Assembly (NCBI GenBank): GCA_947589405.1
Contig: CANQBT010000001.1
Location: forward strand, 1 to 47,788
DNA: 47,788 nt
Source: an uncultured Clostridia bacterium
GTDB lineage: Bacteria; Bacillota; Clostridia; Lachnospirales; CAG-274
Direction of reading: 5' to 3'
Under the pieces are notes generated by a model. That model did no database searches, was not told the origin of the DNA, and saw nothing but the letters and a program-made list of their open reading frames with translations. Position 1 is the stretch's first letter; the number at the start of each line of letters is the position of its first letter. Positions 14,878 to 47,633 of the stretch are shown one piece after another. Position numbers and translations under genes: made by a program.

Positions 14878-16479
14878 GTGACAGATGTTTATATTATAAT
14901 TGCAAAGTACCTTTTTATGATATATATAGCTGTATTTGTATTCAACGGCTTTATGATAAATCTTGCAAAGCAGGATATGGCAAAATACAATATAATAGCC
15001 GGACTCTCAGCTCAGAGGGTATGTATTGCCCTTTTCCACATTACCGCCTCCGTAATACTTATTGCAAATTCATTGGAGTACGACATACAGCCTGTTGTAA
15101 TATACTGTGTGATAGGCTTTGTGATAACTGTGGGCGGAAACGCCCTTACAAGAGCCATATATCCCGAAGGCAGTCATATGCTCTATAACTGTGTGTTTTT
15201 CCTTATGGACTTAGGACTTGTAATGCTTTACAGACTTAACACAGACCTGGCTGAAAAACAGCTTATATGGAACAGCATAGGTATTATAGCTATGCTTGTG
15301 CTGCCTAAGATACTGGAGGTCACTCCTCGTCTTGACCGCTTTAAAAGACTTTATATAATACTTGCATTCATACTTCTGGCGGCAACGCTTATATTCGGCA
15401 AGGACGAAGGAGGAGCTACAAACTGGATAAGCATAGGTCCCATAGGCTTTCAGCCTTCAGAGCTTATAAAGGTGCTTTTCGTATTCTATCTGGCGGCTGC
15501 CCTTGACAAAAAGCCAAGCTTTAAAGAGCTTATAGTACCTGCTATCGTCAGCGGAGCCATAGTACTCTGTCTTGTAGCCCAGACCGATCTCGGTTCGGCG
15601 CTTATATTCTATATGACATTCCTTATAATGGTATTTGTTGCTACCTGCAACTATTTCTACTTTATTTTGGGCATAGGCGCCATATCTCTTGCATCGGTAA
15701 TAGCCTACAACCTCTTCTCTCATATACAGATAAGAGTAGAGGCATGGCAGAATCCCTGGCTTGATGTAAACGACAAGGGCTATCAGATAGCCCAGTCCCT
15801 TTTTGCCATATGCACATGGGGCATAACAGGAATAGGCTTTACAAGAGGATATGCCGACAGTATACCTGTAGTGGAGAGAGATTTTATATTTGCGGCAATA
15901 TGCGAAGAATTCGGCGTAATATTTGCAGCAGGTCTTATAATGGTATTTATATTGATATTCCTGGAGGGCGCAAGAGGAGCTCTTGAAAACAGAAACAGCT
16001 TCCTTACTCTTCTCTGCACAGGCTTTACGGCGCTTTTCGCATTCCAGGCGTTCCTTATAATAGGCGGCGTAATAAAGATGATACCCCTTACAGGCGTTAC
16101 TCTGCCCTTTGTAAGCTATGGCGGTACATCAATAGTTATAAGCTATGTTATAATAGCGGCAATGCAATGGATAATAATGCGCAATGAGGCATATGCTCAC
16201 GACAAGCCCATTGAAGAAGTAGATACAAGAGTACGTCACGCTCAGACAAGGCGAGCACTTGAAAGACCGTCACGCAGAACGGCTGCGGACTCCGATGCAA
16301 TAAAGGAGAGAACTCCTGTCAGAAAGCAGCCTGTTCAAACGCAAAAGCAGTCCGAGAGCAGCCGCAGGCAGACAAGCCGCAATACCCAAAAGACCGCAGT
16401 AAGCAGAAACACGACCCAAAGACCTGCAAGGCATAAGACTGCGCAAAGCTCTGCAAAGGAAAGGGGGAGCAGAAAATGA
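14878..16479 (+). CDS. SEDS-family protein (FtsW/RodA/SpoVE) with a basic C-terminal tail
   Basis: Multi-TM protein with SEDS motifs (GATNWISIGPIGFQPSELIK, TDLGSALIF, LPFVSYGGTS). GTG start 3 nt after the U32 stop. Its stop overlaps the PBP start as ATGA. Confidence 0.85.
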   Translation: MTDVYIIIAKYLFMIYIAVFVFNGFMINLAKQDMAKYNIIAGLSAQRVCIALFHITASVILIANSLEYDIQPVVIYCVIGFVITVGGNALTRAIYPEGSHMLYNCVFFLMDLGLVMLYRLNTDLAEKQLIWNSIGIIAMLVLPKILEVTPRLDRFKRLYIILAFILLAATLIFGKDEGGATNWISIGPIGFQPSELIKVLFVFYLAAALDKKPSFKELIVPAIVSGAIVLCLVAQTDLGSALIFYMTFLIMVFVATCNYFYFILGIGAISLASVIAYNLFSHIQIRVEAWQNPWLDVNDKGYQIAQSLFAICTWGITGIGFTRGYADSIPVVERDFIFAAICEEFGVIFAAGLIMVFILIFLEGARGALENRNSFLTLLCTGFTALFAFQAFLIIGGVIKMIPLTGVTLPFVSYGGTSIVISYVIIAAMQWIIMRNEAYAHDKPIEEVDTRVRHAQTRRALERPSRRTAADSDAIKERTPVRKQPVQTQKQSESSRRQTSRNTQKTAVSRNTTQRPARHKTAQSSAKERGSRK

Positions 16480-18016: not shown

Positions 18017-18664
18017 TTATTCTGCTTCTGTAGTTGTTTCTGTAGCTTCTTCGTCAGCTTCTGTTGTTTCCTCAGCTGCTTCTGTAGCTTCTTCATCAGC
18101 TTCGGTCACATTCTCTGTAGCTTCCTCAGTAACGGCTTCAGTCGTTGCCTCAGCAGTAGTTTCCTCTGTCTTTGCGGCGTTTACGGTAACAGTTCTTGTT
18201 GCTGCGTCCCACTCTACCTCAAAGCCAAAGTATTCTGAAAGGAATCTGACGGGAACCATAGTTCTGCTGTTTATGATAGTTGCAGGAGTGTCAATGTCTA
18301 CAGTATATTCTGTATCTCCGTCGTTATAAACAAGCTTAGGCTCGCCTATAGTCATGGAAGCTGTAAGACCGTCCTTTTCCATAACAACTGTCTTTGTATC
18401 TGCCTTCCAGTCAACGTCACAGCCAAGAGCCTCTGCAATTACTCTGAAAGGTACCATAGTTCTGTCGTTTACTATAACGGCAGGCTGGTCGCTCTCTACA
18501 GCGGCGCCTGATACTATAACTGTAACGGCTGAACCTGATGCTACGGGAGCTGCTGCAACAAGAGCAGGAGCATCTGCTTCTCCGTCACCTGCTGCATGAA
18601 CAGGTACCATTATTGCTGCCATTGTCATTGCCATAGCAAGTAACATACATAATTTCTTTTTCAT
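18017..18664 (-). CDS. Secreted protein with two copper-amine-oxidase-N-like stalk domains and an acidic T/E/A repeat tail
   Basis: Start moved to ATG 18664 (MKKKLCMLLAMAMT signal peptide, GGAGGAAAC RBS). There are two stalk-type motifs, VNDRTMVPFRVIAEALGCDVDW and INSRTMVPVRFLSEYFGFEVEW. The C-terminal ~50 aa are TEEAT-type repeats. Confidence 0.75.
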   Translation of the reverse strand: MKKKLCMLLAMAMTMAAIMVPVHAAGDGEADAPALVAAAPVASGSAVTVIVSGAAVESDQPAVIVNDRTMVPFRVIAEALGCDVDWKADTKTVVMEKDGLTASMTIGEPKLVYNDGDTEYTVDIDTPATIINSRTMVPVRFLSEYFGFEVEWDAATRTVTVNAAKTEETTAEATTEAVTEEATENVTEADEEATEAAEETTEADEEATETTTEAE

Positions 18665-23610: not shown

Positions 23611-23630
23611 TCGGCTTTGTGGAGTAGTTA

Positions 23631-23830
23631 TTGGCTTTTGCAAAGCAAAAGTGCCGGGACGCCTTATGTTTATGCTCCTCAAATGAAAAACCGATATTTA
23701 TCACTAGATACGCATACGAAAGCCGTCCCTTAGCCTTTTAAGGCGTAAGGGAAGGTGTCCGCCCAATCATTTCTTTACAATAACATTACATTTGCATTGG
23801 GCGGACGGAAGGGTCGACCTTCCCCATAAC
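23631..23830 (+). repeat. Structured intergenic repeat, diverged copy C
   Basis: Shares module order and the right-end sequence TTTGCAT(T)GGGC(G/T)GAC(G/T)GAAGGGTCGA with the copies at 33370-33765 and 42981-43257. Has hairpins GTCCGCCCAAT (23757-23767) with ATTGGGCGGAC (23796-23806), and GGAAGG-GTCGA-CCTTCC. Confidence 0.6.
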
Positions 23831-33169: not shown

Positions 33170-33266
33170 TGCCCTGTGCTTTTGGCATAATATACTGTCC
33201 TTTAGGAAATTTAGGAGATGTTTGTTGCATAGACGGCATCTCCTCTTTGTTTATGACAAAAAATAA

Positions 33267-33313
33267 CTGCTGAGATAGGATCTGTATAAAATCTTATCTC
33301 AGCAGTTTTGTTT
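33267..33313 (+). terminator. Strong rho-independent terminator after the 585-aa gene
   Basis: CTGCTGAGATAGGAT pairs with ATCTTATCTCAGCAG (14/15 bp, 33267-33305), followed by TTTTGTTTG. A weaker hairpin (GGAGATG/CATCTCC, 33214-33243) precedes it. Confidence 0.75.
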
Positions 33314-33369
33314 GTGGTGTGAGAGTTGTTTTTATTTTTGCAAGTATCAACATTATTTTTGCTTTAGAA

Positions 33370-33765
33370 CGACCCTTCCACCATTTCAAACAATGTTTGA
33401 AAGGTTCAGCACTTTTGCTTTGCAAAAGCAAGCCTACGGCTTGGCGGATAATTCTTCCGCTGCAATGTCCCCCTCCCCTCCGACGCCCTACGGGCTATCA
33501 GCACTTTCGGCAAGCCGAAAGCCGACCTGACGGTCGTCCGATAAATCTTTCGTTGCAACGGGGAGGCTAGAGGTGGGGAGGAAAGGGAAGCCTTAAGTTT
33601 ATGTTCTTTAAATACTTTTATAATGTTAAAAAGCTAGTATTTATAACTAACTAAAAAATTATGGGGAACTACAAACTAGGCTCCCCTTGGAGCTAGGGGA
33701 GCTGTCAGCCCAACCAAGAATTACAAGTTGTGAACGGATTTGCATGGGCTGACTGAAGGGTCGAC
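33370..33765 (+). repeat. Structured intergenic repeat, long copy A
   Basis: Ends CGACCCTTC (33370-33378) and GAAGGGTCG (33755-33763) are inverted complements. Internal hairpins and C-rich/G-rich tracts are shared with copy B. Its last 59 nt are 56/59 identical to copy B by my manual alignment. Confidence 0.7.
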
Positions 33766-33792
33766 TCAATTTTGTAAAAAAATAATTAAGAA

Positions 33793-34209
33793 TTATAGAT
33801 TACTCTTGATTTTTTCAATTATTTCTGTATACTCAGTATCAGTAAGATATTTAGGAGGCTCCACATTCATTTCAAATGTGCCGCCAAAGCCGTAGCCGTC
33901 CTTCTGCTTCGGTACGATATGCACGTGAAGATGAGGAAGCGTATCGCTGTACATTCCATAATTTACTTTGGCAGGGTTTACGCTTTTCATTATCGCCCTT
34001 CCTACAGTCTGCATATCCTCTATAAACAGAGCGGAATCCTCTTTTGAAAGCTCTGTAAAGTCCACATTGTGCTCCTTATAGGCGATAACGCAGCGTCCGT
34101 AATAGGTCTGTTCTCTGAAAAGATAGAGCTTTGTGACCTTAAGGTCTGCAATGTAGATCATGAGGGAATCTAATTTTTCCTTATTTTTGCAATATAAACA
34201 ATTTTCCAT
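33793..34209 (-). CDS. HIT-family (histidine triad) protein
   Basis: Histidine triad HLHVHIVP. The track ORF opens at TTG 34224. ATG 34209 (MENCLYCKNKEK) sits 8 nt after a GGAGG and is preferred. Confidence 0.85.
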   Translation of the reverse strand: MENCLYCKNKEKLDSLMIYIADLKVTKLYLFREQTYYGRCVIAYKEHNVDFTELSKEDSALFIEDMQTVGRAIMKSVNPAKVNYGMYSDTLPHLHVHIVPKQKDGYGFGGTFEMNVEPPKYLTDTEYTEIIEKIKSNL

Positions 34210-34321
34210 TTCATTTACCTCCAAAATATGTTATACTTTAATTATATAATGACATTATGCTACTGTCAATTTTATTTTTGACGATATTTTGCAAATTATA
34301 TTGAAAAAAGGAGAGATGCAT

Positions 34322-35794
34322 ATGATAACGCTGGCACGTGATTTTTTTGTGATAGGTGCTGTTATAATGTATATCACAAATATCATTTTTGCCATTTTTG
34401 TCGTTTTCTTTGAGAAGAAAAATCCCGGCGTTACATGGGCTTGGCTCATGGTGCTTGTAATGATACCGTACTTTGGTTTTCTTTTTTACATCGTTCTGGG
34501 CTTTGAGGGCAGGAAGCATAAGGTTTTTGGCAAAAAGCTCACGGAGGATATAAAGTTCTTTGAAGAATTTACAGAAAAATATCCTCAATATGCTGCCGAT
34601 GAAAAGCTTATGGACGAAATAGACGGTATAATACCCAGCAAAAATACTGCCTATCTCAATAACCTTGTGGTAATGAATAAAAACAGCGGCAGAAGTCCTT
34701 ACAGGCAGAACAACAGCGTAGAGGTATTTCATGAAGGCAATACCAAATTTGAAAGCCTTCTTGAGGATATTAAAAACGCCAAAAGCTTTGTACATATGGA
34801 ATATTATCTTATGCATGACGACTCTCTGGGCGTGCGTATTATGGAAGCCCTTGCCGAAAAGGCCCGTCAGGGCGTAGAGGTAAAGGTAATATATGACGGT
34901 ATGGGAAACGCAAGCAACAAGCCTTCTTTTAAGAAAATACTTGTAAACGCCGGCGGAGAGGTCAGGATATTCCTTCCTCCAAGAGGTATAAGGGTCAATT
35001 ACAGAGATCATAGGAAAATAGCTGTAATAGACGGCAAAACAGGCTATATAGGCGGTCTTAATATAGGCGATGAATATATAAGCCTTAAAAAGCGCTTCGG
35101 CTTCTGGAGAGATTCCCATATAAAGATAACAGGCGATTCCGTAAAGGATCTGGAGCTTAGGTTCATGATGGACTGGAATTTCACAAAGGGAGAAAACATA
35201 GGACTTGACGAAAAGTACTTCCCGACTGTTGAAAATCAAGAAGAAAATGTAAATATGCAGATAATATCCAGCGGACCCGATACCCAATGGAACAGCATAT
35301 TGAACAGCTACTTCAAGATGGTGACAGAAGCCAATAAAAATATATATATAGCAACTCCTTATTTCGTACCTGACGACAGTCTTTTGGTAGCTCTGAGGAC
35401 AGCGGCTCTTTCAGGGATAGACGTAAGGATAATAATACCGGGAAAGCCCGATCACCCCTTTGTGCATTCGGGAAGTCTAAGCTATATGGGAGAGCTTATG
35501 GAGGCAGGCGTAAGATGCTATGAATACAGAAAGGGATTTATACACGCCAAAGTAATGACAATAGACGGCATGATAACATCTGTCGGTACTGCCAATATGG
35601 ATATAAGAAGCTTCAGTCTTAATTTTGAAGTAAACGCTCTTATATATGATGAAAATGTAACTGCCGAATTTGAAAAGCAGTTCAATATCGACTTTAACGA
35701 CTGTGATGAAATAATACCTGAGGAATATCAAAATCGCGGAAGAATAGCAAAAGCAAAGGAAGCCTTTGCAAGACTGATTTCTCCGCTGCTGTAA
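34322..35794 (+). CDS. cls: Cardiolipin synthase
   Basis: Two N-terminal TM helices and two PLD HKD motifs (HRKIAVIDGKTGYIGGLNIGDEY and HAKVMTIDGMITSVGTANMD). Start placed at ATG 34322, 6 nt after AAGGAGAG. Confidence 0.9.
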   Translation: MITLARDFFVIGAVIMYITNIIFAIFVVFFEKKNPGVTWAWLMVLVMIPYFGFLFYIVLGFEGRKHKVFGKKLTEDIKFFEEFTEKYPQYAADEKLMDEIDGIIPSKNTAYLNNLVVMNKNSGRSPYRQNNSVEVFHEGNTKFESLLEDIKNAKSFVHMEYYLMHDDSLGVRIMEALAEKARQGVEVKVIYDGMGNASNKPSFKKILVNAGGEVRIFLPPRGIRVNYRDHRKIAVIDGKTGYIGGLNIGDEYISLKKRFGFWRDSHIKITGDSVKDLELRFMMDWNFTKGENIGLDEKYFPTVENQEENVNMQIISSGPDTQWNSILNSYFKMVTEANKNIYIATPYFVPDDSLLVALRTAALSGIDVRIIIPGKPDHPFVHSGSLSYMGELMEAGVRCYEYRKGFIHAKVMTIDGMITSVGTANMDIRSFSLNFEVNALIYDENVTAEFEKQFNIDFNDCDEIIPEEYQNRGRIAKAKEAFARLISPLL

Positions 35795-35806
35795 GGAGGA
35801 GAATAT

Positions 35807-36790
35807 ATGAAGATCAGACGATTCCTGAGCTGTACCGTATTCATACTTGCATTCGCATCTGTTATGAACGTATATGCAAAGGATATAAAGCTGCTTATAG
35901 AGGGACATAATATAGAAACGGATACACCTCCCGTTATAATGTATGACAGAGTGATGCTGCCTGTAAGGACCATATTTGAAGGGGTAGGAGCCGAGCTTGC
36001 CTGGGACGGTGAAAGCAAGACTCTTACCGGGACAAAGGGCAGTCATATTGTCGTAATGACAGTAGGCAAGGAGGAATATACCATTGACGGTGAAGAGCAT
36101 ACTATGAGCGTACCTCCCTGCATACTTAACGACAGAGTATTTGCTTCTGCAAGATACGTAGCGGAAGCCTTCGGCTATACCGTAGACTGGGATAAGGATC
36201 AGCTTATTGCGGAAATAAAAGCCGAAAAGCCTCAGGAGGAAACAACAAAGGTCAAAGACGAACAGAAGGATGAGCACAAGGACGAACAGAAGGATGAGCA
36301 TAAGGACGAACAAAAGACCGAAAAGGCTGAACCAAGTACGGAAACTACCACAAAAGCCATTACTCCTGTGGCAGCTGTGACTCCTTCTCTTTACAACAAG
36401 GTAAAAGAGGATCTGAATATTACCTTTGACGGATATACTCTTGGTACGGCAGAGCATATAAACAGATTTAAAATAGCTACCGTCAATTATTACAAAAACA
36501 GCTGGAGCGAAATGGCAAAGACCGATATAGACAAAACCTTCGTCAGCTACAGCAAGACCCTTTACGACAGAATAATAAGCACAGCCAAGAGAATAGATTA
36601 TGTATATACAAGGGAAAAATATCTCGGAAAAAGAGAGATAAGCGACGACTGCCGTGAAAATAAGGCAATATTGAAGGATTATATAGACCAATATTTTGCC
36701 TGCGAAACTCTTGAGGAATGCAAGGATATAAACAACAAGCTGCGTGAATTCTACACAGGTATAAAAACAAAATATCCCGAATATGAATAA
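35807..36790 (+). CDS. Secreted copper-amine-oxidase-N-like stalk-domain protein with a KDEQKDEH repeat and an unknown C-terminal domain
   Basis: Signal peptide. Stalk motifs ([44 protein letters not shown]). Charged repeat linker. GGAGGAG RBS 12 nt after the cls stop. Confidence 0.75.
36254..36316 (+). repeat. 2.6 tandem copies of a 24-nt repeat inside the stalk-domain gene
   Basis: AAAGACGAACAGAAGGATGAGCAC (36254-36277), AAGGACGAACAGAAGGATGAGCAT (36278-36301), and a partial third copy to 36316. Encodes KDEQKDEH reiterations. Confidence 0.8.
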
Positions 36791-36816
36791 ATATTTGTGC
36801 TAAAAGGGAGGTCGAA

Positions 36817-38391
36817 ATGAACAAGCTTATTCAATTTAAAAACATTGTGAAGGAATTTGATTCACAGATAGTTTTAAAAGGTATAAACTTAGATATATAT
36901 GAAAATGAATTTGTAACGCTGTTAGGCCCAAGCGGCTGCGGAAAGACTACCATTCTGAGAATACTGGGAGGATTCATTGAGCCAAATGAAGGCGAGGTGC
37001 TCTTTGACGGAAAGAATATGGCAGGCGTACCTCCCTACAAAAGGGAAATAAATACTGTATTCCAGAAATATGCCCTTTTCCCACATCTTAACGTATACGA
37101 CAATATTGCCTTTGGCCTTAAAATAAAAAAGGAGCCGAAGGACATTATAGAACAGAAGGTAATGCGTATGCTCAGGCTTGTGGGACTGGAGGAATACGGC
37201 AAAAGAAGAGTGACTGAAATGTCAGGCGGACAGCAGCAGAGAGTCGCCATTGCAAGGGCTCTTGTAAACGAACCAAAGGTCCTTCTCCTTGACGAACCTC
37301 TCGGCGCCCTTGATCTCAAGCTGAGAAAGGAAATGCAAAGAGAGCTTAAAAAGATACAGAAGGAGGTTGGTATCACATTTATATATGTTACCCACGACCA
37401 GGAAGAAGCTCTTACCATGTCGGACAAAATAGTCATAATGAATCAAGGCGAAATACAGCAGATAGGCTCTCCCATCGATATATATAACGAACCTGCAAAC
37501 AGATTTGCCGCCAACTTCATAGGCGAAAGCAACATAATAGACGGAATTATGCTGGAGGACTGCAAGGTCATGTTTGAGGACACGGTTTTTGACTGTGTGG
37601 ACAAGGGCTTTGAAGAAAACGAAAGCGTAGATGTGGTGATACGCCCTGAGGATATTAATATTGTGCCCACTAAAAAAGGAAAACTGATCGGTATTGTGAA
37701 ATCTGTTCTCTTCAAGGGCGTACACTACGAAACCATAGTTGAAACAGAAACAGGCACGAAGATAACCGTGCAGATGACTGTGTCCGATCCCAAGCCCGTA
37801 CAGAATCTATCTGCCGATGAATCCATGAGCGCCAATGACTTCTACATTGACATAAGCGATATTCCCGAGCTGACCATTGCGGACATAACCGCAAGAGCAG
37901 ACGCTCAGGCATGGAAAACCTCTACGGAGGAGCTTGTGTCCATCACTAAGGTGGACTATGAGCTAAAGGAGGAAAAGGGAAGCTATCCCGTTACCTTCTC
38001 CACATCAGCCGGCACTATGCACACCATACACATGATAGTTGCCGATGAGAACAAGGTAGAAGCGGAAAAGACAAATGAAGTCATATACGCCGTTAATATA
38101 TACAAAACAATAGATGATATTAAGGAAAGCATTGCCCTTGAAACAGATCTGAAGACATGGGCAAACGCCCAGGCATGGACCTCAGACGGAGATACGAGCA
38201 TAGCCATTACAAATGTAGAGTATGACTTCGATCCTGAAAATATAGAGATCGGAACATATGATATTACATTCGGCACAAGAGGCTATGAATACAAGATAGA
38301 CACTACTGAGGAATACAATGTAGGCGACAGAGTAGGCCTTACGTTTTCACCTGATGACCTGCATATTATGCCAAAGGAGGGCAGACTATGA
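36817..38391 (+). CDS. potA: Spermidine/putrescine ABC transporter ATP-binding protein PotA with a ~180-aa insertion
   Basis: Walker [11 protein letters not shown]-loop [10 protein letters not shown], signature [15 protein letters not shown], Walker [17 protein letters not shown]-like C-terminus is split by two tandem repeats. GGGAGG RBS. Confidence 0.9.
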
Positions 38392-39227
38392 AAAGCTTCA
38401 GACGAATGGCTTATCCCTATCTGATATGGTCAGCGGTCTTTATAGTGCTGCCTATGCTGCTTATTATAGTATACGCCTTTACAAAGGAAGGAAATTCCGT
38501 TATAAACATACAGTTTACCCTTGACAATTTTGCAAAATTCTTTAGCGATAAGGTATTCTTTTATGTGCTCAGGCGTTCCATATACATTGCAATAGTCACT
38601 ACTGTAGTATGTATACTTCTGGGGTATCCCCTTGCTTATATAATTGCCTGTATGAAGCCTAAATCACAGGTCGTAATGGTATTTATAGTAACTATCCCCA
38701 CATGGATAAACATGCTCGTAAGGACATATGCATGGAGAGGTATACTTGATAAAAACGGTATGCTGAACAGCATTCTCGGTCTATTCGGAATAGGACCCAT
38801 ACAATTTCTGGAAACTGCCTTTGCGGTGGTGCTGGGCATGGTATATAATTTTATACCCTTTATGATACTACAGATATATAATTCCCTGAGCAAAATGGAC
38901 GACAGCTATCTGGAGGCAGCTGCCGATCTTGGCGCAGACAAGGTACAGACATTTATGAAGGTGGTGCTTCCTCTTTCCATACCGGGAGTCATAAGCGGTA
39001 TAACTCTTGTATTCCTGCCTGCTGTGTCCAGCTTCTTTATACCTAAGCTGTTAGGCGGAGGAAAATATGTACTTATAGGAAATGTGATCGAAAGTCAGTT
39101 CCTGACAAGCGGCGACTGGGGCTTTGGCTCAGCCATATCGCTTATTATGGCAATTATAATAATCATTTCAATGCATATTACCAAAAAGCTGGATAAGGAT
39201 AACTCGGCAGAAGGGGGGAATGGGTAA
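38388..39227 (+). CDS. potB: Spermidine/putrescine ABC transporter permease PotB
   Basis: Six-TM binding-protein-dependent permease with EAA-type loop [25 protein letters not shown] overlap with potA. Confidence 0.87.
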
Positions 39228-40024
39228 TGAAAAAGAAAAAACACATTCTCTCTAAAATATTTGCAGGTCTTATGATAGCATTTTTCTATCTGCCTATACT
39301 CTATACCATCGTTTTTTCATTTAATGATTCCCGTTCATTAAGTGTATTTGACGGATTCTCGCTCAGATGGTATGAGAAAATGTTCCACAATTCGGATATG
39401 ATGGAATCCGTATTCTATACTATAGCTATAGCCCTGCTGGCAACATTTATATCCACCATAGCAGGCACAATAGCCGCCATAGGCATATCAAAATCAGGCA
39501 GGATATTAAAAGGTGTCGTAGAGCAGGTGAACAATCTGCCAATAATGAATCCCGAAATAGTAACGGCAATAGGACTGCTTATGCTTTTCAGCTCTCTGGC
39601 AGTTTCAAAGGGCTTTACCACTCTTCTGCTGGCTCACATTATGTTCTGCATACCCTATGTGATACTCAGCATTTTGCCTAAGCTGCGATCTCTTGATCCC
39701 AACATATTGGATGCGGCTCTGGATCTGGGCTGTACTCCCGTACAGGCTCTTGTGAAGGTAATAGTCCCTCAGATAACCTCCGGCATATTTGCAGGAGCGC
39801 TGATAGCCTTTACCATGAGCTTTGACGATTTTGTAATATCATATTTTGTAACAGGCAACGGTGTAAACAATATCTCAATAATGATATACACCATGTCAAA
39901 AAGAATAAATCCTACGATAAACGCATTGTCATCATTGATAATAGCTATTATCACGGCAGTACTTTTAATACTCAATATTACACCAATTATACTGGAAAAG
40001 CGAAAGGAGAAAAAACAAAAATGA
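39227..40024 (+). CDS. potC: Spermidine/putrescine ABC transporter permease PotC
   Basis: Permease with EAA-type loop LDAALDLGCTPVQALVKVIVP. TAATG overlap with potB. Confidence 0.87.
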   Translation: MKKKKHILSKIFAGLMIAFFYLPILYTIVFSFNDSRSLSVFDGFSLRWYEKMFHNSDMMESVFYTIAIALLATFISTIAGTIAAIGISKSGRILKGVVEQVNNLPIMNPEIVTAIGLLMLFSSLAVSKGFTTLLLAHIMFCIPYVILSILPKLRSLDPNILDAALDLGCTPVQALVKVIVPQITSGIFAGALIAFTMSFDDFVISYFVTGNGVNNISIMIYTMSKRINPTINALSSLIIAIITAVLLILNITPIILEKRKEKKQK

Positions 40025-41097
40025 AAAAATTACTGGCTTTACTCTTAAGCGGTGCTTTTATTCTGGCAGGCTGCGGAGGCAGCGGCTCAGAAGATGTTGA
40101 GAAAGTAGAGGGATTTGAGGGACAGACCCTTAAATTCTATAACTGGGGAGAATATATAGGCGAAGATGTTATTTCTAATTTTGAAAAGATGTATGATGTA
40201 ACAGTCGTTTCAGAATATTTCGATTCAAACGAAATGATGTATACCAAGTTAAGCGCAGGGGATTCCTATGACCTGCTTGTTCCCTCAGATTATATGATAG
40301 AACGACTTATAAAGGAGGATATGCTCCAGCCCATAGATAAATCAAAAATACCCAATCTTGCCAATCTCACAGAAGGCGTAAGGAATCTGGAATATGATCC
40401 CGACAACACATATTCGGTACCTTATTTCTGGGGTACGGTAGGTCTTGTCTATAATAAAAACAATGTTCCGCCTGAGGAGATCGAAGCAGAGGGCTACAAT
40501 ATACTCAAAAACACAAAGTACAAGGGAAGCATTTATATTTACGATTCAGAGCGTGATTCCTTTATGACGGCATTCAAGGCTCTGGGCTATTCTATGAATA
40601 CCGAAAACGAAGATGAAATAAACGCTGCCTATAAATGGCTTTCAGACATAAACGCCACAATGGAGCCGGCATATGTTACAGATGAGGTAATAGACGCTAT
40701 GGCAAACGGCAATAAGGACATAGCCGTTGTATACAGCGGAGATGCCGCATTTATACTTTCACAGAATCCCGACATGGGCTACTGCGAACCAAAGGAGGGT
40801 TCAAATCTCTGGAGCGATGCTATGGTGATCCCCAAGAATGCTGAAAATCCCGAGCTTGCTCACGAATTTATGAACTATATACTCAGCTACGAGGCCTCTA
40901 AGGACAATTCCGTGACAGTAGGCTATGCTTCTTCAAACGATCAGGTGCTTAAGGAGCTTTCCTCAGAAGGCGGAGAATATTATCAGAACGAAGCATATCT
41001 GCCAAGAACAGGCTATGAAAAAGATGAAATTTTCCACGATAACGAAACGCTTAGAAAAAAGCTTTCCGAACTGTGGATAAAAGTAAAGGCTGAATGA
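40021..41097 (+). CDS. potD: Spermidine/putrescine-binding lipoprotein PotD
   Basis: Lipobox FILAGCGG. PotD-like motifs (LKFYNWGEYI, YDLLVPSDYM, VPYFWGTVGLVYN). ATGA overlap with potC. Confidence 0.87.
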   Translation: MKKLLALLLSGAFILAGCGGSGSEDVEKVEGFEGQTLKFYNWGEYIGEDVISNFEKMYDVTVVSEYFDSNEMMYTKLSAGDSYDLLVPSDYMIERLIKEDMLQPIDKSKIPNLANLTEGVRNLEYDPDNTYSVPYFWGTVGLVYNKNNVPPEEIEAEGYNILKNTKYKGSIYIYDSERDSFMTAFKALGYSMNTENEDEINAAYKWLSDINATMEPAYVTDEVIDAMANGNKDIAVVYSGDAAFILSQNPDMGYCEPKEGSNLWSDAMVIPKNAENPELAHEFMNYILSYEASKDNSVTVGYASSNDQVLKELSSEGGEYYQNEAYLPRTGYEKDEIFHDNETLRKKLSELWIKVKAE

Positions 41098-41141
41098 TCG
41101 GCCAATAAAAATATAAGCTGAATAGAAAGGGAGGTATTATC

Positions 41142-42893
41142 ATGAATTCAGGCTTAAGAAAAATTATAGGCGCAGCTGCGGCCCTGACACTTCTTGTCAG
41201 CTCATTTGCCGTATATGCAGCAGACAGTACCGATACTGCCAAAGCTGAGATATATGGCTCCGTACAGCAGGTAGTCGGCTTCTCCGACGCTACCGGCTAT
41301 ACTACCGAGACCTATTACACAGGGGACAAGAAGAACAACAAATGCGATGCAAACGTAAGCATAAAAAATGCAGCAGAGCAGGTTCCGCTTAAAGGAGCAA
41401 AGGTAAACATCAAAAACAGCGATTCTACTATTGACAAAACGATAGCCGTAAAGGCAGACGGTACTTTCAGTTATTCGGGTGAAGCCAAAAAGCCTCTTGC
41501 AGACGGTGTGTATACGATAACGGCAGCTGCCGAAAACGGCACTCCCATAGGCGGCGCTCAGACTGTAACAATATCAGGTGGCAAAGCCGACAAAGGCGCA
41601 AGCTTCGTACAGGACGACAGACTTGTGTACACCTTCCAGACGGATATAAAGGACTTTAAGGACGAGATACTCGTTATGAAGGACGGCAAAGAGGCATTCA
41701 GACTGCTGGATAAGTCCTATCACTACCAGACTCAGCCTGCCGGCTCTCCAAGCGATATTGCAAGACGTGCCAGCGTTATACACAGAGTAAAGATGCCTGT
41801 AGGCACATATTCCTTCTTTGTTGTAAAGCCCGGTACCGATATTTCATCAAAGAGATATACTATCTCCGCTTCAGACACCTCAGGCATAAGCTCTATCGAC
41901 ATTACTCAAAGAGGAGCAAGCATGCTCTATCTTGTGCCAAAGGTAAATGACTCGGTTATGGAGGCCGCTAAGGCTGCCGCTGATAAAATAGGCAACGTTA
42001 GAAGGGGTATATATACCTTCACTCCTTCACCTTCATCTAAAAATGCAACTGTAAATCACTCTCTTGGCGGAGTTCCCACACAGGACTATGTTGCAGACGA
42101 CATCGGCGCTTACGGAATACTTGGCGAAGATGCGCAATATAAGAATTCCATTATGGTCAACGGAGACAACTATGTTGTGTTTAAGATAAAGGCAGGCGAT
42201 GAATTTGTTACCAAAATAAATGTAACAAAGCAGTCCTACATACTTGCCGATGTAAACTATACAAGAAAGGTAGAGGGCAGAGATCAGATAGCTATAGACA
42301 GCCGTTTCGGAAATGTTACTCTTACTCTTGGCGAGGGTACCTACGTGCTGTATACTACTGCCGAGAACGAAGGATATGTTAATTCAATAGAATTCAATTA
42401 TTCCTCACCGTTTAATGTTATACAAAGCGTTCCCGCTTCAAAGACAGCATCTGACGGAGCAAAAATGGTAGTAGGCTCCTTTGATACCACAAACAATATA
42501 GAGGATTACTCCAAGTTTGCTATAATGATCTCCTCTAACAGAGATGCTCTTGACTATTCAAGCATAAACAATGAACATAATTCAGAACCTATTCCCGGAG
42601 ATAACACAAGCGTTACATCGGAAGGCGGTAAAATATATGTTCTCAATGCAAAATACGATACAATGGGAGCAAGCACCGCTACTGTAATAATAGAAGAGAC
42701 CGAAACTCTTTTCAAAAAGGTCGTAGATGCTTCAGGCGCAACAATTGCCGAAACAATAGACGATGACTTCTATTACTGTTCCGCAAGAATAAACAATGTA
42801 AGCGGTACATTATATGCCGTAGGCGCAGCTAAAAGAGCAGATGAGCCCGACGGCAAATGGATGGTACAGACCACTCCTTTTGTAATTCAGTAA
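41142..42893 (+). CDS. Hypothetical secreted protein (583 aa)
   Basis: Signal peptide (AAAALTLLVSSFAVYAADS). The N-terminal ~100 aa resemble a small beta-sandwich (LKGAKVNIKNSDSTIDKTIAVKADGTFSYSG). The rest is unrecognised. GGGAGG RBS, 44 nt after potD. Confidence 0.7.
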   Translation: MNSGLRKIIGAAAALTLLVSSFAVYAADSTDTAKAEIYGSVQQVVGFSDATGYTTETYYTGDKKNNKCDANVSIKNAAEQVPLKGAKVNIKNSDSTIDKTIAVKADGTFSYSGEAKKPLADGVYTITAAAENGTPIGGAQTVTISGGKADKGASFVQDDRLVYTFQTDIKDFKDEILVMKDGKEAFRLLDKSYHYQTQPAGSPSDIARRASVIHRVKMPVGTYSFFVVKPGTDISSKRYTISASDTSGISSIDITQRGASMLYLVPKVNDSVMEAAKAAADKIGNVRRGIYTFTPSPSSKNATVNHSLGGVPTQDYVADDIGAYGILGEDAQYKNSIMVNGDNYVVFKIKAGDEFVTKINVTKQSYILADVNYTRKVEGRDQIAIDSRFGNVTLTLGEGTYVLYTTAENEGYVNSIEFNYSSPFNVIQSVPASKTASDGAKMVVGSFDTTNNIEDYSKFAIMISSNRDALDYSSINNEHNSEPIPGDNTSVTSEGGKIYVLNAKYDTMGASTATVIIEETETLFKKVVDASGATIAETIDDDFYYCSARINNVSGTLYAVGAAKRADEPDGKWMVQTTPFVIQ

Positions 42894-42901
42894 TATCTAT
42901 A

Positions 42902-42933
42902 CTGCCTGCAAAGTATTTGCAGGCAGTTTTTTT
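42902..42933 (+). terminator. Strong rho-independent terminator of the cls-pot gene string
   Basis: CTGCCTGCAAA (42902-42912) pairs perfectly with TTTGCAGGCAG (42916-42926), followed by T7. Confidence 0.88.
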
Positions 42934-42980: not shown

Positions 42981-43257
42981 ATCGACCCTTCCACCATTTC
43001 AAACAATAAAATTGTTTGAAATGGTCCCCCTCCCCTCCGACGCCCTGTGGGCTAGGGGAGGCTAAAGGTGGGAGGATAAGGGACGCCTTAAGATAAGGCA
43101 CCCCAAATGCCTTAATAATGTTGAAAAATTTGTATTCATAACAAACTAAAAAATTATGGAGAACTACTGTCTAGGCTCCCCATTCGTAAGGGGAGCTCAG
43201 CCCAACCAAGAATTGCAAGTTATGAACAGATTTGCATGGGCTGACTGAAGGGTCGAT
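42981..43257 (+). repeat. Structured intergenic repeat, compact copy B
   Basis: Perfect 11-nt inverted termini ATCGACCCTTC (42981-42991) and GAAGGGTCGAT (43247-43257). Perfect 15-bp hairpin ACCATTTCAAACAAT-aaa-ATTGTTTGAAATGGT. Same C-rich/G-rich tracts and right-arm hairpins as copy A. Confidence 0.72.
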
Positions 43258-43445: not shown

Positions 43446-44396
43446 ATGACAGTAGATTTAATAGTTCCCTGCTACAATGAATCGGCTGTACTGAATATGT
43501 TTTATAACGAAGCAAGCAGAGTAGCCGACAGCATTAAAAATTACGATTTCAATTTTATATTTGTAAATGACGGAAGCAAGGATAACACTCTTGAAATAAT
43601 GAAGGAGCTTGCCGAAAAGGATAAGAGAGTAAAGTATATATCCTTTTCCCGCAACTTTGGCAAGGAATCCGCTATGTATGCCGGACTTAAAAATTCCTCA
43701 GGGGATTATACGGTAATACTTGACGCAGACCTTCAGCACCCTCCCGCTCTTATACCTGAAATGCTTAAGGCTATGGAGGAAGGCTATGACTGCTGCGCTA
43801 CAAACAGAGCCACAAGAGACGGAGATCCTTTCGTAAGGACATTTTTCACAAGGCGGTTCTACAGCTTTATAAACAAGATCTCTGAGGTGAATATGCCCGA
43901 CGGCGCAGGAGATTTCAGAATGATGAACCGCAAAATGGTTGAGGCGGTAATAGCTCTCAGCGAGGTACAGCGCTTTAGCAAGGGTATATTCAGCTGGGTA
44001 GGCTTTAATACAAAGTGGATAAGCTTCAACAATGTGGAAAGAGCCGCAGGTCAGACAAAATGGAGCTTTTGGGGACTTCTGAAATATGCTGCCGCAGGCA
44101 TTACGGCATTCTCCACATTTCCTCTTAAGGTAGCCATATATCTGGGAAGTCTTATATCCGTTTCTTCATTTGTATATCTTATATACATCGTTATAAAGAC
44201 ACTTGTACACGGCAAGGACCTTCCCGGCTATGCTTCCATAATAGCAATACTTCTGTTTCTTGGCGGCTGCATAATGCTGTGCTGCGGAATAATGGGAGAA
44301 TATATAGCCAAGATATATATAGAGGTCAAGAACAGACCTGTCTATATAATAGGCGAAACTAATATAGACAAGCCTGAGCACGACTATGGGAGGTAA
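43446..44396 (+). CDS. GT2-family polyprenyl-phosphate glycosyltransferase (GtrB/CsbB-like)
   Basis: N-terminus IVPCYNE...VNDGSKDNT, motif DADLQHPP, and two C-terminal TM helices. AAAGGAG RBS. Confidence 0.87.
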   Translation: MTVDLIVPCYNESAVLNMFYNEASRVADSIKNYDFNFIFVNDGSKDNTLEIMKELAEKDKRVKYISFSRNFGKESAMYAGLKNSSGDYTVILDADLQHPPALIPEMLKAMEEGYDCCATNRATRDGDPFVRTFFTRRFYSFINKISEVNMPDGAGDFRMMNRKMVEAVIALSEVQRFSKGIFSWVGFNTKWISFNNVERAAGQTKWSFWGLLKYAAAGITAFSTFPLKVAIYLGSLISVSSFVYLIYIVIKTLVHGKDLPGYASIIAILLFLGGCIMLCCGIMGEYIAKIYIEVKNRPVYIIGETNIDKPEHDYGR

Positions 44397-44401
44397 CAAA
44401 A

Positions 44402-44845
44402 ATGCTTAAAAATTTACTTTCCCGTATTGCCAACAGAGAAACGATAAGCTATCTTGTATTCGGCGTACTCACTACGATGGTCTGTCTTGTAAGCTATGAG
44501 CTTGTGAAGCTTATGCTTACGGCAGGTGCCGAGCCGACGCCCATACAGATGAATATTGCCAACGTGTCCAGCTGGGTACTGGCTGTGGCATTTGCCTATA
44601 TTACAAACAAGCTTTTTGTATTTCGCTCAAAGTCCTTTGCACCTGCATTGCTGCTTAAGGAGATCTCCTCCTTTGTGGGAGCAAGGCTTCTTTCTCTTGG
44701 CTTTGAAATAGTGTGGATGAATGTGACAGTATCTCTTTTGCACTTTAACGACAGCATATGCAAGATACTGGCTCAGTTTGTAATAGTGGTAATGAACTAT
44801 ATTTTCAGCAAATTATTTATATTTAAAAATAAAGGAGAGTCTTGA
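44402..44845 (+). CDS. GtrA-family membrane protein
   Basis: 147 aa with four TM helices and the GtrA-like pattern (ISYLVFGVLTT..., NKLFVFRS, NYIFSKLFIF). GGGAGG RBS. Confidence 0.83.
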   Translation: MLKNLLSRIANRETISYLVFGVLTTMVCLVSYELVKLMLTAGAEPTPIQMNIANVSSWVLAVAFAYITNKLFVFRSKSFAPALLLKEISSFVGARLLSLGFEIVWMNVTVSLLHFNDSICKILAQFVIVVMNYIFSKLFIFKNKGES

Positions 44846-44846
44846 C

Positions 44847-47633
44847 ATGAACGAAAAAAAGAAAAATCTGTTCTATGACAACAGGTTTGTAATACTGGCG
44901 TTTGTCCTTACGGCGCTTATAATGGGTACTACATATATTCTGAGACATGTATATCCCTTCGGTGATCAGATAGTGCTGAAGGTGGATCTTTACCATCAGT
45001 ACGCCCCCTTCCACGAAGAGCTTAGAAGCCGTATAGTAAACGGACAGAGCCTTATATACAGCTGGGAAGGCGGTCTTGGCAAGGAATTTATAACACAGGT
45101 AGCCTACTATACGGCAAGTCCCATAAGTATATTGATACTGCTCTTTTCTCAGGAGCTGCTGCCGGAAGCCCTTGCCATATTCATACTTTTAAAGACATGC
45201 TTTACAGCGGCGTTCTTTTCCTACTATTTAAGAAAACACTTTGACAAAAACGATATTTCAATTACAATATTCGGTCTGCTCTACGCCTTTACGGCATTTA
45301 TGACAGGCTATTACTGGAATGTCATGTGGCTTGACACAGTTGCCATATTCCCTCTTGTAGCACTTGGAATAGAAAAGCTTATACACGAGGATAAGCATGT
45401 TTTCTATCTTGTAGCACTTGTGTTCACAATGATAGTTAACTTCTATATGGCTGTTATCGTATGCGTATTTTCAGCTCTGTACTTTCTTGTTGTGCTCTTT
45501 TCGGAAAACAGCTGGAGTAAAAACAGAAGCTTTATAATATCCAGATTTATCAAATTTTCAATAGTATCCATAATAGCGGCTCTTATTTCAATGTTCATAC
45601 TGGCGCCTGTTGCCATTGCGCTTGGACAGACAGCTACAAGCGATACAAGCTTCCCACAGTTTGATATATACGACAATGTATATCAGCTTATTACCAACCA
45701 CTTCATAGGCGCAAGACCTGTCGTGCTGGCAAGAAACGAGGACCTTCCCAATGTATACTGCGGTATTGTGACTATGATGCTGATACCTCTGTATTTCTTC
45801 AATACAAAGATAGCGAAGAAGGAAAAAACACTTATAGCGGTTCTTCTTATATTCATGCTTATGTGTGCCTGCATAAAGCCTTTGGACTTTATGATACATG
45901 GCTTCCACTTCCCGTCTAATCTGCCTCACAGATATACATTCATATACAGCTTTATAATGCTTGTGATAGCATATAAGGGTCTTATGAATATAAAGTCTGC
46001 GGATATGATGTGGGTAGTGCTTTCGGGCGTTATATATGCGGTAGTTATACTGGTTACGGAATATATACTGGTGCCGAATATAAGCGATATAGACAGAGTA
46101 CTTTCCGATACAGATATTATTATAAACATTACGGCTATGATAGTTTATGGCGTGCTTATAAGCATGTACAAAAACACAAAGTCCTCCAATGTTACGGGAC
46201 TGCTCTGCATATTCCTTGTGCTGGCAATAGCCGAGTGTCTTTTCTCCAGCTATGAAGGTCTTGACAGGACCACTTCAAGAGATGAATATGTAAGATATAT
46301 AGAAAATGCCGACAAGGCAGTAGAATATCTTGATGAAAAGGAAAACGGCAATTTTTACAGAACGGAATTCAGGCGCTTTACAACAATAAACGATGCAGCG
46401 CTTTATCACTACAGAGGATTTTCACAGTTCTCATCACTTGCGCCCGGCGGTATATCAGAATTCATAGGTCATCTGGGTATAGCCGCTACAGGCAACAGCT
46501 ACAGATATTACGATCCTACGGCTCTTGTAGACGCTATGTTCGACCTTAAGTACGTTATGAATAAGGCGGCGGACAACGGCGACGGTACTATAAAGAACGA
46601 GAGATATGAAAAGGAGACCGAGTTCGGAAACGTATGGATATACAGAAACGACAGAGTGCTTCCTCTTGGATTTATGGTAAACAATGATATTGAGAACTGG
46701 GAAACTACGGAGTCAATGCCTTTCAGGGTACAGAACGACTTTGTAAAGCTGGCGGCAGGCATAGATGAAGAGATGTTCACAGACGTTCAGCCCGACAGTA
46801 TTACAAAGACATATATGGAGGTAACGGAAGATATTAACTCCAACGAATTTAAATATAAGCTGACCGATCCGGCTAATCTGGACCTTCTGCCTACCGTTAC
46901 AACGGAATTTACCTCAGATAAGGATCAATACCTGTTTGTATATGTAGACGCAGGAAACGCCAAGAGAGTCAAATACAAGACCGATACGGCTAACGAGGAC
47001 AGAGAGCTTTCGGCAGGCAAGAGTCTTTTCGATATAGGAAATGTAAAGGCAGGAGAAAAGATAACCGTTACATTTGAGCTTACAAACAAGGGTGAGTTTG
47101 AAAAGACATACAGAAAAGACGGTACTGTCAAGATATACGGCGCAAGCTATAATGATGAGGTATTCCAGAAGGCATATGACAAGCTTAAGGAGCATCCTTA
47201 CAATATCACAAGCTTTGAGGATACTCATATAGAGGGTACCGTAAATGCAGCTCAGGACGGTGTGCTCTTTACATCTATACCGTATATAGGCGGCTGGAAG
47301 GTATTTCTTGATGGACAGCCTGTGGATAAGGTATCTGTAGGCGATGACGGTGTCATAGGCGTTAAGGTACCTGCCGGAGAGCACAGTATCACATTTGACT
47401 TTACCTCTAAGGGACTTGTACCTTCTATAATAGTATCTGCCGCAGGTATCGCTATTGCAATAATATATACTCTTATAGACAAGAAGAGAAGGCTTAAAGC
47501 GGAGGAAAAGGCTGCTCAGGTGAAAGCCCATGAGGAAGCGGTCGCAGAAAGCATAAAAGCTCAAAAGGCAGAAGAAAAACGTATAAAAGCCGAAAGCAAG
47601 CCTAAAAAGCTTTCTAAGAAAGGCAGGAAATAG
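44847..47633 (+). CDS. YfhO-family polytopic membrane glycosyltransferase
   Basis: 928 aa with the YfhO N-terminal pattern (YPFGDQIVLKVDLYHQYAPFHEELR), more than 12 TM helices, a large extracytoplasmic domain, a final TM helix, and a K/E-rich tail. Confidence 0.85.
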   Translation: MNEKKKNLFYDNRFVILAFVLTALIMGTTYILRHVYPFGDQIVLKVDLYHQYAPFHEELRSRIVNGQSLIYSWEGGLGKEFITQVAYYTASPISILILLFSQELLPEALAIFILLKTCFTAAFFSYYLRKHFDKNDISITIFGLLYAFTAFMTGYYWNVMWLDTVAIFPLVALGIEKLIHEDKHVFYLVALVFTMIVNFYMAVIVCVFSALYFLVVLFSENSWSKNRSFIISRFIKFSIVSIIAALISMFILAPVAIALGQTATSDTSFPQFDIYDNVYQLITNHFIGARPVVLARNEDLPNVYCGIVTMMLIPLYFFNTKIAKKEKTLIAVLLIFMLMCACIKPLDFMIHGFHFPSNLPHRYTFIYSFIMLVIAYKGLMNIKSADMMWVVLSGVIYAVVILVTEYILVPNISDIDRVLSDTDIIINITAMIVYGVLISMYKNTKSSNVTGLLCIFLVLAIAECLFSSYEGLDRTTSRDEYVRYIENADKAVEYLDEKENGNFYRTEFRRFTTINDAALYHYRGFSQFSSLAPGGISEFIGHLGIAATGNSYRYYDPTALVDAMFDLKYVMNKAADNGDGTIKNERYEKETEFGNVWIYRNDRVLPLGFMVNNDIENWETTESMPFRVQNDFVKLAAGIDEEMFTDVQPDSITKTYMEVTEDINSNEFKYKLTDPANLDLLPTVTTEFTSDKDQYLFVYVDAGNAKRVKYKTDTANEDRELSAGKSLFDIGNVKAGEKITVTFELTNKGEFEKTYRKDGTVKIYGASYNDEVFQKAYDKLKEHPYNITSFEDTHIEGTVNAAQDGVLFTSIPYIGGWKVFLDGQPVDKVSVGDDGVIGVKVPAGEHSITFDFTSKGLVPSIIVSAAGIAIAIIYTLIDKKRRLKAEEKAAQVKAHEEAVAESIKAQKAEEKRIKAESKPKKLSKKGRK

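Follow-up and report, generated by a model that had tools for sequence, protein, structure and literature searches.

Introduction

Repeats of the repetitive extragenic palindromic (REP), bacterial interspersed mosaic element (BIME), BOX and MITE (miniature inverted-repeat transposable element) types are well studied in Proteobacteria and streptococci; no description was found of such a repeat in the uncultured Clostridia that dominate gut communities. In the REP/BIME/REPIN system the repeated unit is a 21–65-nt hairpin whose foot bears a conserved 5′ GT[AG]G, and a single-copy RAYT gene is flanked by such units (PMC6006769). The ends of insertion sequences (ISs) of the IS200/IS605 type bear subterminal hairpins that are recognised as single-stranded DNA, with linear motifs near the hairpin foot setting the cleavage site, and their insertion leaves no target duplication (PMC6006769). 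Here we describe a repeat element, copy A, located at positions 33370–33764 of a 47,788-nt stretch of DNA (the window; contig CANQBT010000001.1, positions 1 to 47,788 of the forward strand, assembly GCA_947589405.1) from an uncultured Clostridia bacterium. Copy A is best read, with a probability of about 0.6, as a non-autonomous interspersed mosaic DNA repeat, REP/BIME- or BOX-like, and not as a gene. Its family, which resides in uncultured gut Clostridia, is apparently undescribed and represents, it appears, a new family among the known types of bacterial repeats.

Results

Copy A is an inverted pair of two-hairpin units

The repeated unit of the family, termed R, measures ~45–95 nt and comprises a hairpin hpX, the dinucleotide TG, a second hairpin hpY and a tail reading [T/G]GA[A/G]GGGT. 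HpX is fairly conserved (G-C-N-TCCC..GGGA-N-G-C) and often displays a purine-purine mismatch at a fixed position, while hpY is GC-rich with a stem sequence that differs in nearly every copy. The elements are inverted pairs, consisting of an inverted unit (R′, with hairpins hpX′ and hpY′), an AT-rich centre and a direct R; therefore their termini read ACCCTTC...GAAGGGT and can pair. Element sizes range from 255 to 396 nt, and the 47.8-kb window holds three copies (A, B and C), with copies D, E and F residing in a related metagenome-assembled genome (MAG).

Copy A, read on the plus strand as are all features described below unless otherwise specified, extends from CGACCCTTC to GAAGGGTCGA (33755–33764). 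A preliminary description of the region had placed its end at 33765, one nucleotide too far. The 5′ terminal inverted repeat CGACCCTTC (33370–33378) complements the tail of the R unit, pairing with GAAGGGTCG at 33755–33763; the same terminus is found in copy B and appears as TCGACCCTTC in copies D and E. The left subterminal hairpin ACC-TTTCAAAC-AAT-GTTTGAAA-GGT (33380–33405, core 33384–33402) occupies the hpY position of R′, and its equivalent in copy B is placed by the covariance model between hpX and the tail of the inverted R. A first nested module of 62 nt, TCAGCAC...CTGCAATG (33406–33467), forms a closed three-hairpin insert at the hpY′/hpX′ junction. It is followed by the C-rich 5′ arm of hpX′ (CCCCCTCCCCTCC) and by a small GCCC-TAC-GGGC hairpin in the hpX′ loop (33468–33497), as read directly from the sequence. 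The second nested module, TCAGCAC...GTTGCAAC (33498–33559), lies in the same loop, and the G-rich 3′ arm of hpX′ (GGGGAGG...GGTGGGGAGG) together with AAGGGAAGCC completes the left half (33560–33592); the alignment shows AAGGGAAGCC to be a homologue of the GAAGGGACGCC arm found in copies C and D. The AT-rich centre (33593–33679) contains the conserved motif (T)ATAATGTT, with TATAAT at 33619–33624. The right-hand R unit (33680–33764) was matched by covariance model R1 with 57.7 bits (E = 1.4e-16) and consists of hpX GCTCCCC/GGGGAGC (33680–33702), TG, hpY GTCAGCCCA/TGGGCTGAC (33704–33753) and the tail TGAAGGGTCGA (33754–33764). The termini, hairpins, tracts and modules listed in the preliminary description are thus all present where it had located them. 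Its likening of the C-rich (33468–33488) and G-rich (33560–33581) tracts to anti-Shine-Dalgarno and Shine-Dalgarno sequences is not supported, however: together they make up the stem of hpX in the left, inverted unit, and in copy B the model pairs CCTCCCCT with AGGGGAGG across 17 nt.

Copy B (42983–43256) represents the 274-nt core form, with an inverted R′ at 42982–43061, an AT-rich centre and a direct R at 43175–43256. Copies A and B have in common the first 25 nt, the C-rich tract and the G-rich tract; their right halves align over ~200 nt at 82.5% identity, rising to 95% in the last 60 nt, in agreement with the near-identity that had been noted by eye for the last 59 nt. In the alignment, the main difference between the two copies lies in the two ~62-nt blocks at 33406–33467 and 33498–33559, both absent from copy B as initially proposed. 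Thus, copy A is the copy B form plus two nested 62-nt modules, each a closed set of three hairpins, which occupy the loop of the left hpX and the hpX/hpY junction. Copy C, spanning about 23611–23817, has one end only. It retains the R unit (23723–23817), the centre, a remnant GGGACGCC, a CTTTTGC/GCAAAAG hairpin and a diverged left part beginning at ~23611; its 5′ terminus is missing and its 3′ end at 23817 reads GGAAGGGTCGA. It sits between the stop codon of a permease gene and a terminator-like hairpin. The pattern GGGANGCCTTANG-N(135-165)-GAAGGGTCGA matched the window exactly three times, at copies A, B and C, against 0 matches expected by chance.

Model R1 recognised four units in the window: the right ends of copy A, copy C (E = 7e-15) and copy B (E = 5.9e-8), all on the plus strand, and the left half of copy B on the minus strand (E = 2e-4). 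No other match was found in the window, and 65 were found in relatives, on both strands. In the left half of copy B the model alignment shows an AT-rich hairpin standing in for hpY; copies D and E carry exact inverted R units at their left ends. Opposite-strand matches at the two ends of an element were observed in copies B and D and in the elements of loci L031, L039–L043 and L047.

The stems of the R unit covary

Covariation was evaluated on 15 R units from four lineages. HpY lay outside the criterion by which the units were collected and its pairing is therefore not circular. In the stems, 93.2% of the alignment cells are paired, compared with 77% in shuffled sets, and 11 of 18 stem pairs are changed on both sides where 5.8 were expected; neither value was reached in any of 500 shuffles. 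The covariation score reached 0.338; shuffles gave 0.102, and sliding the pairing partners gave no more than 0.076 and also reduced the paired cells to 34–53%.

Folding favours neither strand. The z-scores against shuffled sequences were −5.8 (plus) and −7.9 (minus) for copy A and −7.2 (plus) and −6.9 (minus) for copy B. In the R orientation the stems contain 576 Watson-Crick pairs, 12 G·T, 6 A·C and 34 G·A or A·G oppositions; mismatches are mostly purine-purine and most of the G·T pairs derive from one inherited position. A strand-specific structure, in which G·U is tolerated and A·C avoided, was not found in the R units. Rfam 15 gave no match at gathering thresholds anywhere in the window, and its permissive mode (E up to 10 or 1) returned only noise on copies A and B and on the array of locus L040, in line with the earlier remark that the element was not recognised as a known RNA family. 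The motif (T)ATAATG(TT), at 33619–33625 in the window, is conserved in the AT-rich centres of copies B, D and E, of L031 and of the L040 units, and has a promoter-like context only in copy E. A dedicated RNA gene is disfavoured because the unit occurs in both orientations, halves of elements are swapped between strains, and copies lie after terminators, in 3′ untranslated regions (UTRs) or antisense to genes. The evidence favours an interspersed DNA repeat with hairpins that come into play in the single-stranded state, although the copies are likely to be passively transcribed.

Element sites are polymorphic and mark breaks in synteny

Comparison with related loci revealed that the element is variable in presence and composition. 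At locus L006, in a related strain, the site of copy A is empty, with 15 nt replacing 33318–33767 (450 nt); the right flank is 100% identical from 33768 onwards and the left flank only 84%. Locus L007, in another strain, is 99.3% identical to the window from 33620 rightward and carries its element in the same orientation, but its left half consists of different hairpin modules and is unrelated. This mosaic has its breakpoint at 33620, and 9 of the 10 differences over 1,487 nt fall within the 146-nt element segment, none of them in a stem.

Nucleotide synteny with the rabbit-gut MAG GCA_947628755.1 is restricted to 33768–42902 (80.6% identity), and gene order differs outside this block, whose limits are the right end of copy A and a point 81 nt short of copy B. 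In the rabbit MAG the two orthologous sites are occupied by other members of the family, copies E and F. At the site orthologous to copy B, this MAG carries a tRNA-Leu(CAA) gene (L027:15074–15156), followed by a different hairpin-rich element at ~15316–15562 that begins with TTGACCCTTCC and has GGGAGACC..GGTCTCCC hairpins. A tRNA/tmRNA scan found nothing in the window or in the elements, its sole match being this ordinary tRNA-Leu.

The flanks of copies A, B and D show no target-site duplication, and neither do those of the nested modules. The flanking A...T at copies B and D is indistinguishable from an extension of the inverted repeat, and the left flanks AGAA, TAAA, AGTA and TAAA indicate no fixed target.

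The 62-nt modules are nested in different backbones

Homologous modules were identified at 33406–33467 and 33498–33559 of the window and at ~L029:1657–1718 and ~L040:7977–8037, the latter two in two other species. Their consensus reads TCAGCA[C/T], followed by two covarying hairpins, CCGATAAATCTTTCGG and TGCAA[T/C]. The module occurs in four different backbones. In L040 it interrupts the loop of the hairpin GACCA^TTGGTC, which neighbouring units retain whole, and in L029 it lies within an isolated hpX-like module. At the module 2 junction copy B reads GGGCTA|GGGGAGG, without the insert, and comparison with copy A reveals no target-site duplication; neither of the two checkable junctions displays one. 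The proposal that the element is modular, with inserts at loops and junctions, is borne out by the loop of the left hpX and by the hpX/hpY junction.

The family is patchily distributed

The preliminary description had counted a family of three copies. The three pattern matches agree with this, but copy C is one-ended and the family reaches well beyond the source genome; that it is a non-coding, intergenic and highly structured repeat family stands. Its distribution is patchy and it is rare in public data. A scan of 185,579 GTDB representative genomes with the terminal pattern returned one true locus, L005, in the rabbit-gut MAG. Copy D at this locus measures ~255 nt and has the termini TCGACCCTTC/GAAGGGTCGA; its left end, TCGACCCTTCA-GTCAGCGCAGT...ACTGCGCTGAC-AGCTTCCC..GGGACGCC, mirrors the right end of the copies in the window. 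JGI metagenomes gave no match to the two-motif pattern and 18 chance matches to the 3′-end pattern, and the terminal patterns gave high-GC chance matches or nothing in viral contigs, including IMG/VR. A BLAST search of copies A and D and of an array from a relative against plasmids and phages retrieved only three unannotated human-faecal contigs labelled "Bacteriophage sp.", which carry compact R elements. In the human-faecal contigs both termini are altered together, to ACCTCTC/GAGAGGT and to ACTCC../..GGAGT. Further repeated hairpin modules, such as CTTCTCCCCTG...ATATAGGGGA and GAGAGGGGTTA repeats, stand beside the R unit in one human-faecal sequence (L045:1400–1950).

The loci of near and more distant relatives were gathered by exact-protein look-ups around the HIT gene and PotA homologues; those made with the genes flanking copies B and C were uninformative. 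A species with a 79% identical PotA carries compact R′-R units of ~100 nt, which are arranged with a 33-nt spacer in tandem arrays. The arrays of L039–L043 occupy a gap of 370 to 746 nt, with the length differing between strains that have an identical PotA protein; one array of this species starts at a stop codon, and a different one runs antisense to the genes on either side. A third lineage has successive elements placed tail-to-tail, where one ends and the next starts. No R unit was found in the ~21-kb loci L048 and L049 of two other lineages. A second, unrelated hairpin-rich element of ~235 nt was observed in the same set of loci (L042:2672–2915 versus L039:~2710; L039:4870–5105 versus L042:~5080), where it forms clean filled-versus-empty pairs between strains with identical PotA. 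In each of these cases the element lies just 5′ of a terminator hairpin, and its left end carries its own terminator-like hairpin, GGCTGTCGA-TAAA-TCGACAGCC.

Comparison with known repeat systems

The R family bears a close likeness to the REP/BIME/REPIN repeats of Escherichia coli and Pseudomonas, which are associated with RAYT (TnpA_REP) and also place a hairpin beside a short conserved linear motif (PMC6006769). Like those repeats, R units form inverted doublets and mosaic clusters; they lie outside genes, frequently in the interval from a stop codon to a terminator, lack target duplications and exist as several sequence variants within one genome. In contrast to REP, the R family has no 5′ GT[AG]G: the foot of hpY reads [A/G][C/G]TG on its 5′ side, and it is the 3′ tail, GA[A/G]GGGT, that is conserved. 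It also differs in having two hairpins per unit, a doublet split by an AT-rich centre of up to ~90 nt and smaller modules nested within, and in its host, a Clostridia lineage, with no RAYT gene identified among the window open reading frames (ORFs) scanned. Because GT[AG]G is missing, the R family may be said to work like REP-RAYT or IS200/IS605 systems and not to be a member of them. ISs of the IS200/IS605 type and palindrome-associated transposable elements (PATEs) resemble it in their subterminal hairpins, the short motif at the foot and the absence of target duplication (PMC6006769). Those elements lack terminal inverted repeats (TIRs) and insert by a fixed tetra- or pentanucleotide, whereas the R family has TIRs and its left flanks vary.

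The BOX elements of pneumococci and other streptococci (boxA-boxB(n)-boxC) are, like the R family, composite modular repeats of Firmicutes with paired terminal inverted repeats, optional self-folding internal modules, strain-variable length and further module types in other species (PMC3049150). This likeness is architectural only. The optional modules of the R family lie at varied internal points and not in a single tandem boxB array, and its two ends carry the same two-hairpin unit in opposite orientations. Bacterial MITEs such as RUP, Correia/NEMIS and Nezha share with the R family the presence of TIRs, small size, absence of coding capacity, tight folding, multiple copies and insertion polymorphism (PMC3049150). 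The R family differs from them in lacking target-site duplications, in not being AT-rich overall and in that no IS with matching ends was found. The literature on REPIN/RAYT systems and MITEs in Firmicutes and Clostridia that was consulted yielded no description of the R-unit family. The enterobacterial repetitive intergenic consensus (ERIC) sequences, or intergenic repeat units (IRUs), are imperfect palindromes of ~127 bp in transcribed intergenic regions of enterobacteria, with longer variants arising from inserts at fixed internal sites. Their hosts are unrelated and the likeness is one of general description; we know of no two-hairpin-plus-tail unit described in ERIC.

Genomic context of the copies

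Copy A lies in a gene-free gap of 623 nt (33170–33792), as first reported, between a plus-strand ORF with no Pfam match that ends at 33169 and a convergent minus-strand HIT-family gene that ends at 33793. Upstream of the element and outside it, two terminator hairpins (33213–33317), each followed by a T-rich run, were recognised by folding and not flagged by the terminator scan; they are kept at the empty allele L006 and agree with the two terminators proposed previously. The promoter scan found no promoter inside copy A and no rightward-reading one inside copy B. The proteins encoded upstream of copies A and B (585 and 583 aa) are unrelated, which rules out a reading of the two copies as 3′ UTRs of paralogues. 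A small ORF in the right half was likewise rejected: the ATG-started frames, read by eye, differ between copies A and B. GC skew was uninformative as a guide to the direction of replication, tracking gene orientation instead.

The 30 ORFs of the window that were scanned are ordinary chromosomal genes, including those for aspartokinase, homoserine dehydrogenase, FtsX/FtsE, RodA/PBP, FeoB, a permease, Liv-type and Pot-type ABC transporters, CinA, HIT and GT2-YfhO. Among them there was no transposase, recombinase, reverse transcriptase or TnpB-like protein and no Y1 or HUH match. An IS with matching ends was found neither in the window nor in the loci of relatives, nor in the plasmid and phage collections.

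Downstream of copy B, the operon at 43446–47633 comprises a GT2 gene, a 147-aa ORF and YfhO and looks like a three-part surface-glycosylation system; no sign of its control by copy B was seen. Beside the HIT gene, a 349-aa minus-strand ORF (34238–35287) with no Pfam match overlaps a plus-strand ORF (34289–35794) and is probably spurious; in relatives a 490-aa PLD/cardiolipin-synthase-like gene is called there, on the strand opposite to HIT. In-frame tandem repeats were observed at 8844–8975 (12-nt period), in an FtsX-like ORF, and at 18022–18129 (21-nt period), in an ORF with a Cu_amine_oxidN1 domain.

Discussion

The R family would be explained by copies that spread and reshuffle through an enzyme supplied in trans and through homologous recombination between copies. 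Recognition would most likely take place on folded single-stranded DNA, as by the HUH/Y1 transposases of the REP-RAYT and IS200/IS605 type, because the stems are kept by compensatory change, a short adjacent linear motif is conserved and no duplication is produced. The inserts in hairpin loops would fit a single-strand-specific insertion step, and effects on neighbouring genes, through 3′-UTR structure or an occasional promoter-like centre, would be secondary. It is conceivable, if doubtful, that gut Clostridia host a REPIN-RAYT-like system of their own, in which a domesticated single-strand-DNA enzyme (HUH/Y1 or new) would recognise the two-hairpin-plus-GAAGGGT unit; the same logic might let closed multi-hairpin modules, such as the 62-nt TCAGCA...TGCAAY, enter the loops of other hairpins without duplication and thereby build nested structures.

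Several observations weigh against reading copy A as a mobile DNA repeat. The analysis turned up neither a transposase or RAYT nor an IS whose ends match, and mobilisation in trans is thus something we infer. The covariation sample is composed of related sequences and the shuffle control ignores kinship, and covarying stems would suit RNA as well as single-stranded DNA. None of the filled-versus-empty comparisons is clean with both flanks intact: at L006 the 84% identity of the left flank leaves the left boundary and the target site undefined. The right halves of copies A and B are only ~82% identical and thus give no sign of recent transposition in the source genome. The centre retains a TATAAT-like motif that in copy E forms part of a 10-of-12 promoter-like site, TTGAAT-16-TATAAT, and several copies are probably transcribed, because they lie inside likely 3′ UTRs.

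The preliminary description had left the choice between a large structured RNA and nested MITEs, of which the latter came closest to the reading favoured here and the former was not supported, given the two orientations, strand symmetry, polymorphism and arrays. A classical MITE would be a deletion derivative of a DDE-type IS, moved as double-stranded DNA by a TIR-binding transposase, with the internal hairpins being incidental. Such an origin would account for the 9–11-bp terminal inverted repeat, (T)CGACCCTTC/GAAGGGTCG(A), for a small, non-coding and multi-copy element with presence/absence polymorphism and for termini that change together in other lineages, as if one protein bound both ends. 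It is nevertheless unlikely, considering that target-site duplications are absent at copies A, B and D and at the nested modules, that one-ended copies and tail-to-tail arrangements exist and that a matching IS is found neither in the window nor in the loci of relatives nor in the plasmid and phage collections; the stems, moreover, are maintained by compensatory change despite sequence drift, which double-stranded recognition does not require.

Equally structured elements could be expected from a family of large non-coding RNAs with its own promoter or within 3′ UTRs, in which the closing helix and the hairpins would be functional and the extra modules lineage-specific expansions. The unit, however, is found in both orientations, within one element as well as across loci, its strands fold equally well without wobble asymmetry, the whole left half is exchanged between strains and a further strain lacks the element, features that make this explanation quite unlikely even though folding is strongly better than chance, both the R-unit hairpins and the 62-nt modules covary and the modules lie at loops and junctions. 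Also in its favour are the TATAAT-like motif conserved in the centre, with TTGAAT-16-TATAAT in copy E, and the location of copy C and of several relatives after a stop codon and ahead of a terminator; against it, copies A and B lie downstream of terminators with no promoter detected by the scan in A or rightward in B, some arrays are antisense to both neighbouring genes and no Rfam family matches. Highly improbable is an inverton, in which a site-specific recombinase would flip a promoter segment between inverted repeats and so control, for example, the GT2-YfhO operon. Inverted repeats do bracket a segment of 250–380 nt with a TATAAT-like box and copy B does lie upstream of the surface-glycosylation operon, but copies A and C are located between convergent genes, a promoter-like site belonging to the GT2 gene itself lies downstream of copy B, the scanned ORFs yielded no recombinase gene and only one orientation was seen in the window and L007; tandem arrays and one-ended copies do not fit either.

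If copy A is an interspersed DNA repeat, its family also carries a caution for RNA discovery, as strong folding and covariation here do not signal an RNA gene. Because members of the family mark breaks in synteny and intergenic regions that vary between strains, they probably play a part in rearrangement, in breaks in MAG assembly and in 3′-UTR structure in their hosts. The defined unit, a hairpin pair with a conserved tail that covaries across lineages, offers a handle for finding the enzyme that acts on it, and the interest of the family would rise if the partner enzyme or the loop-targeted nesting proved to be new.

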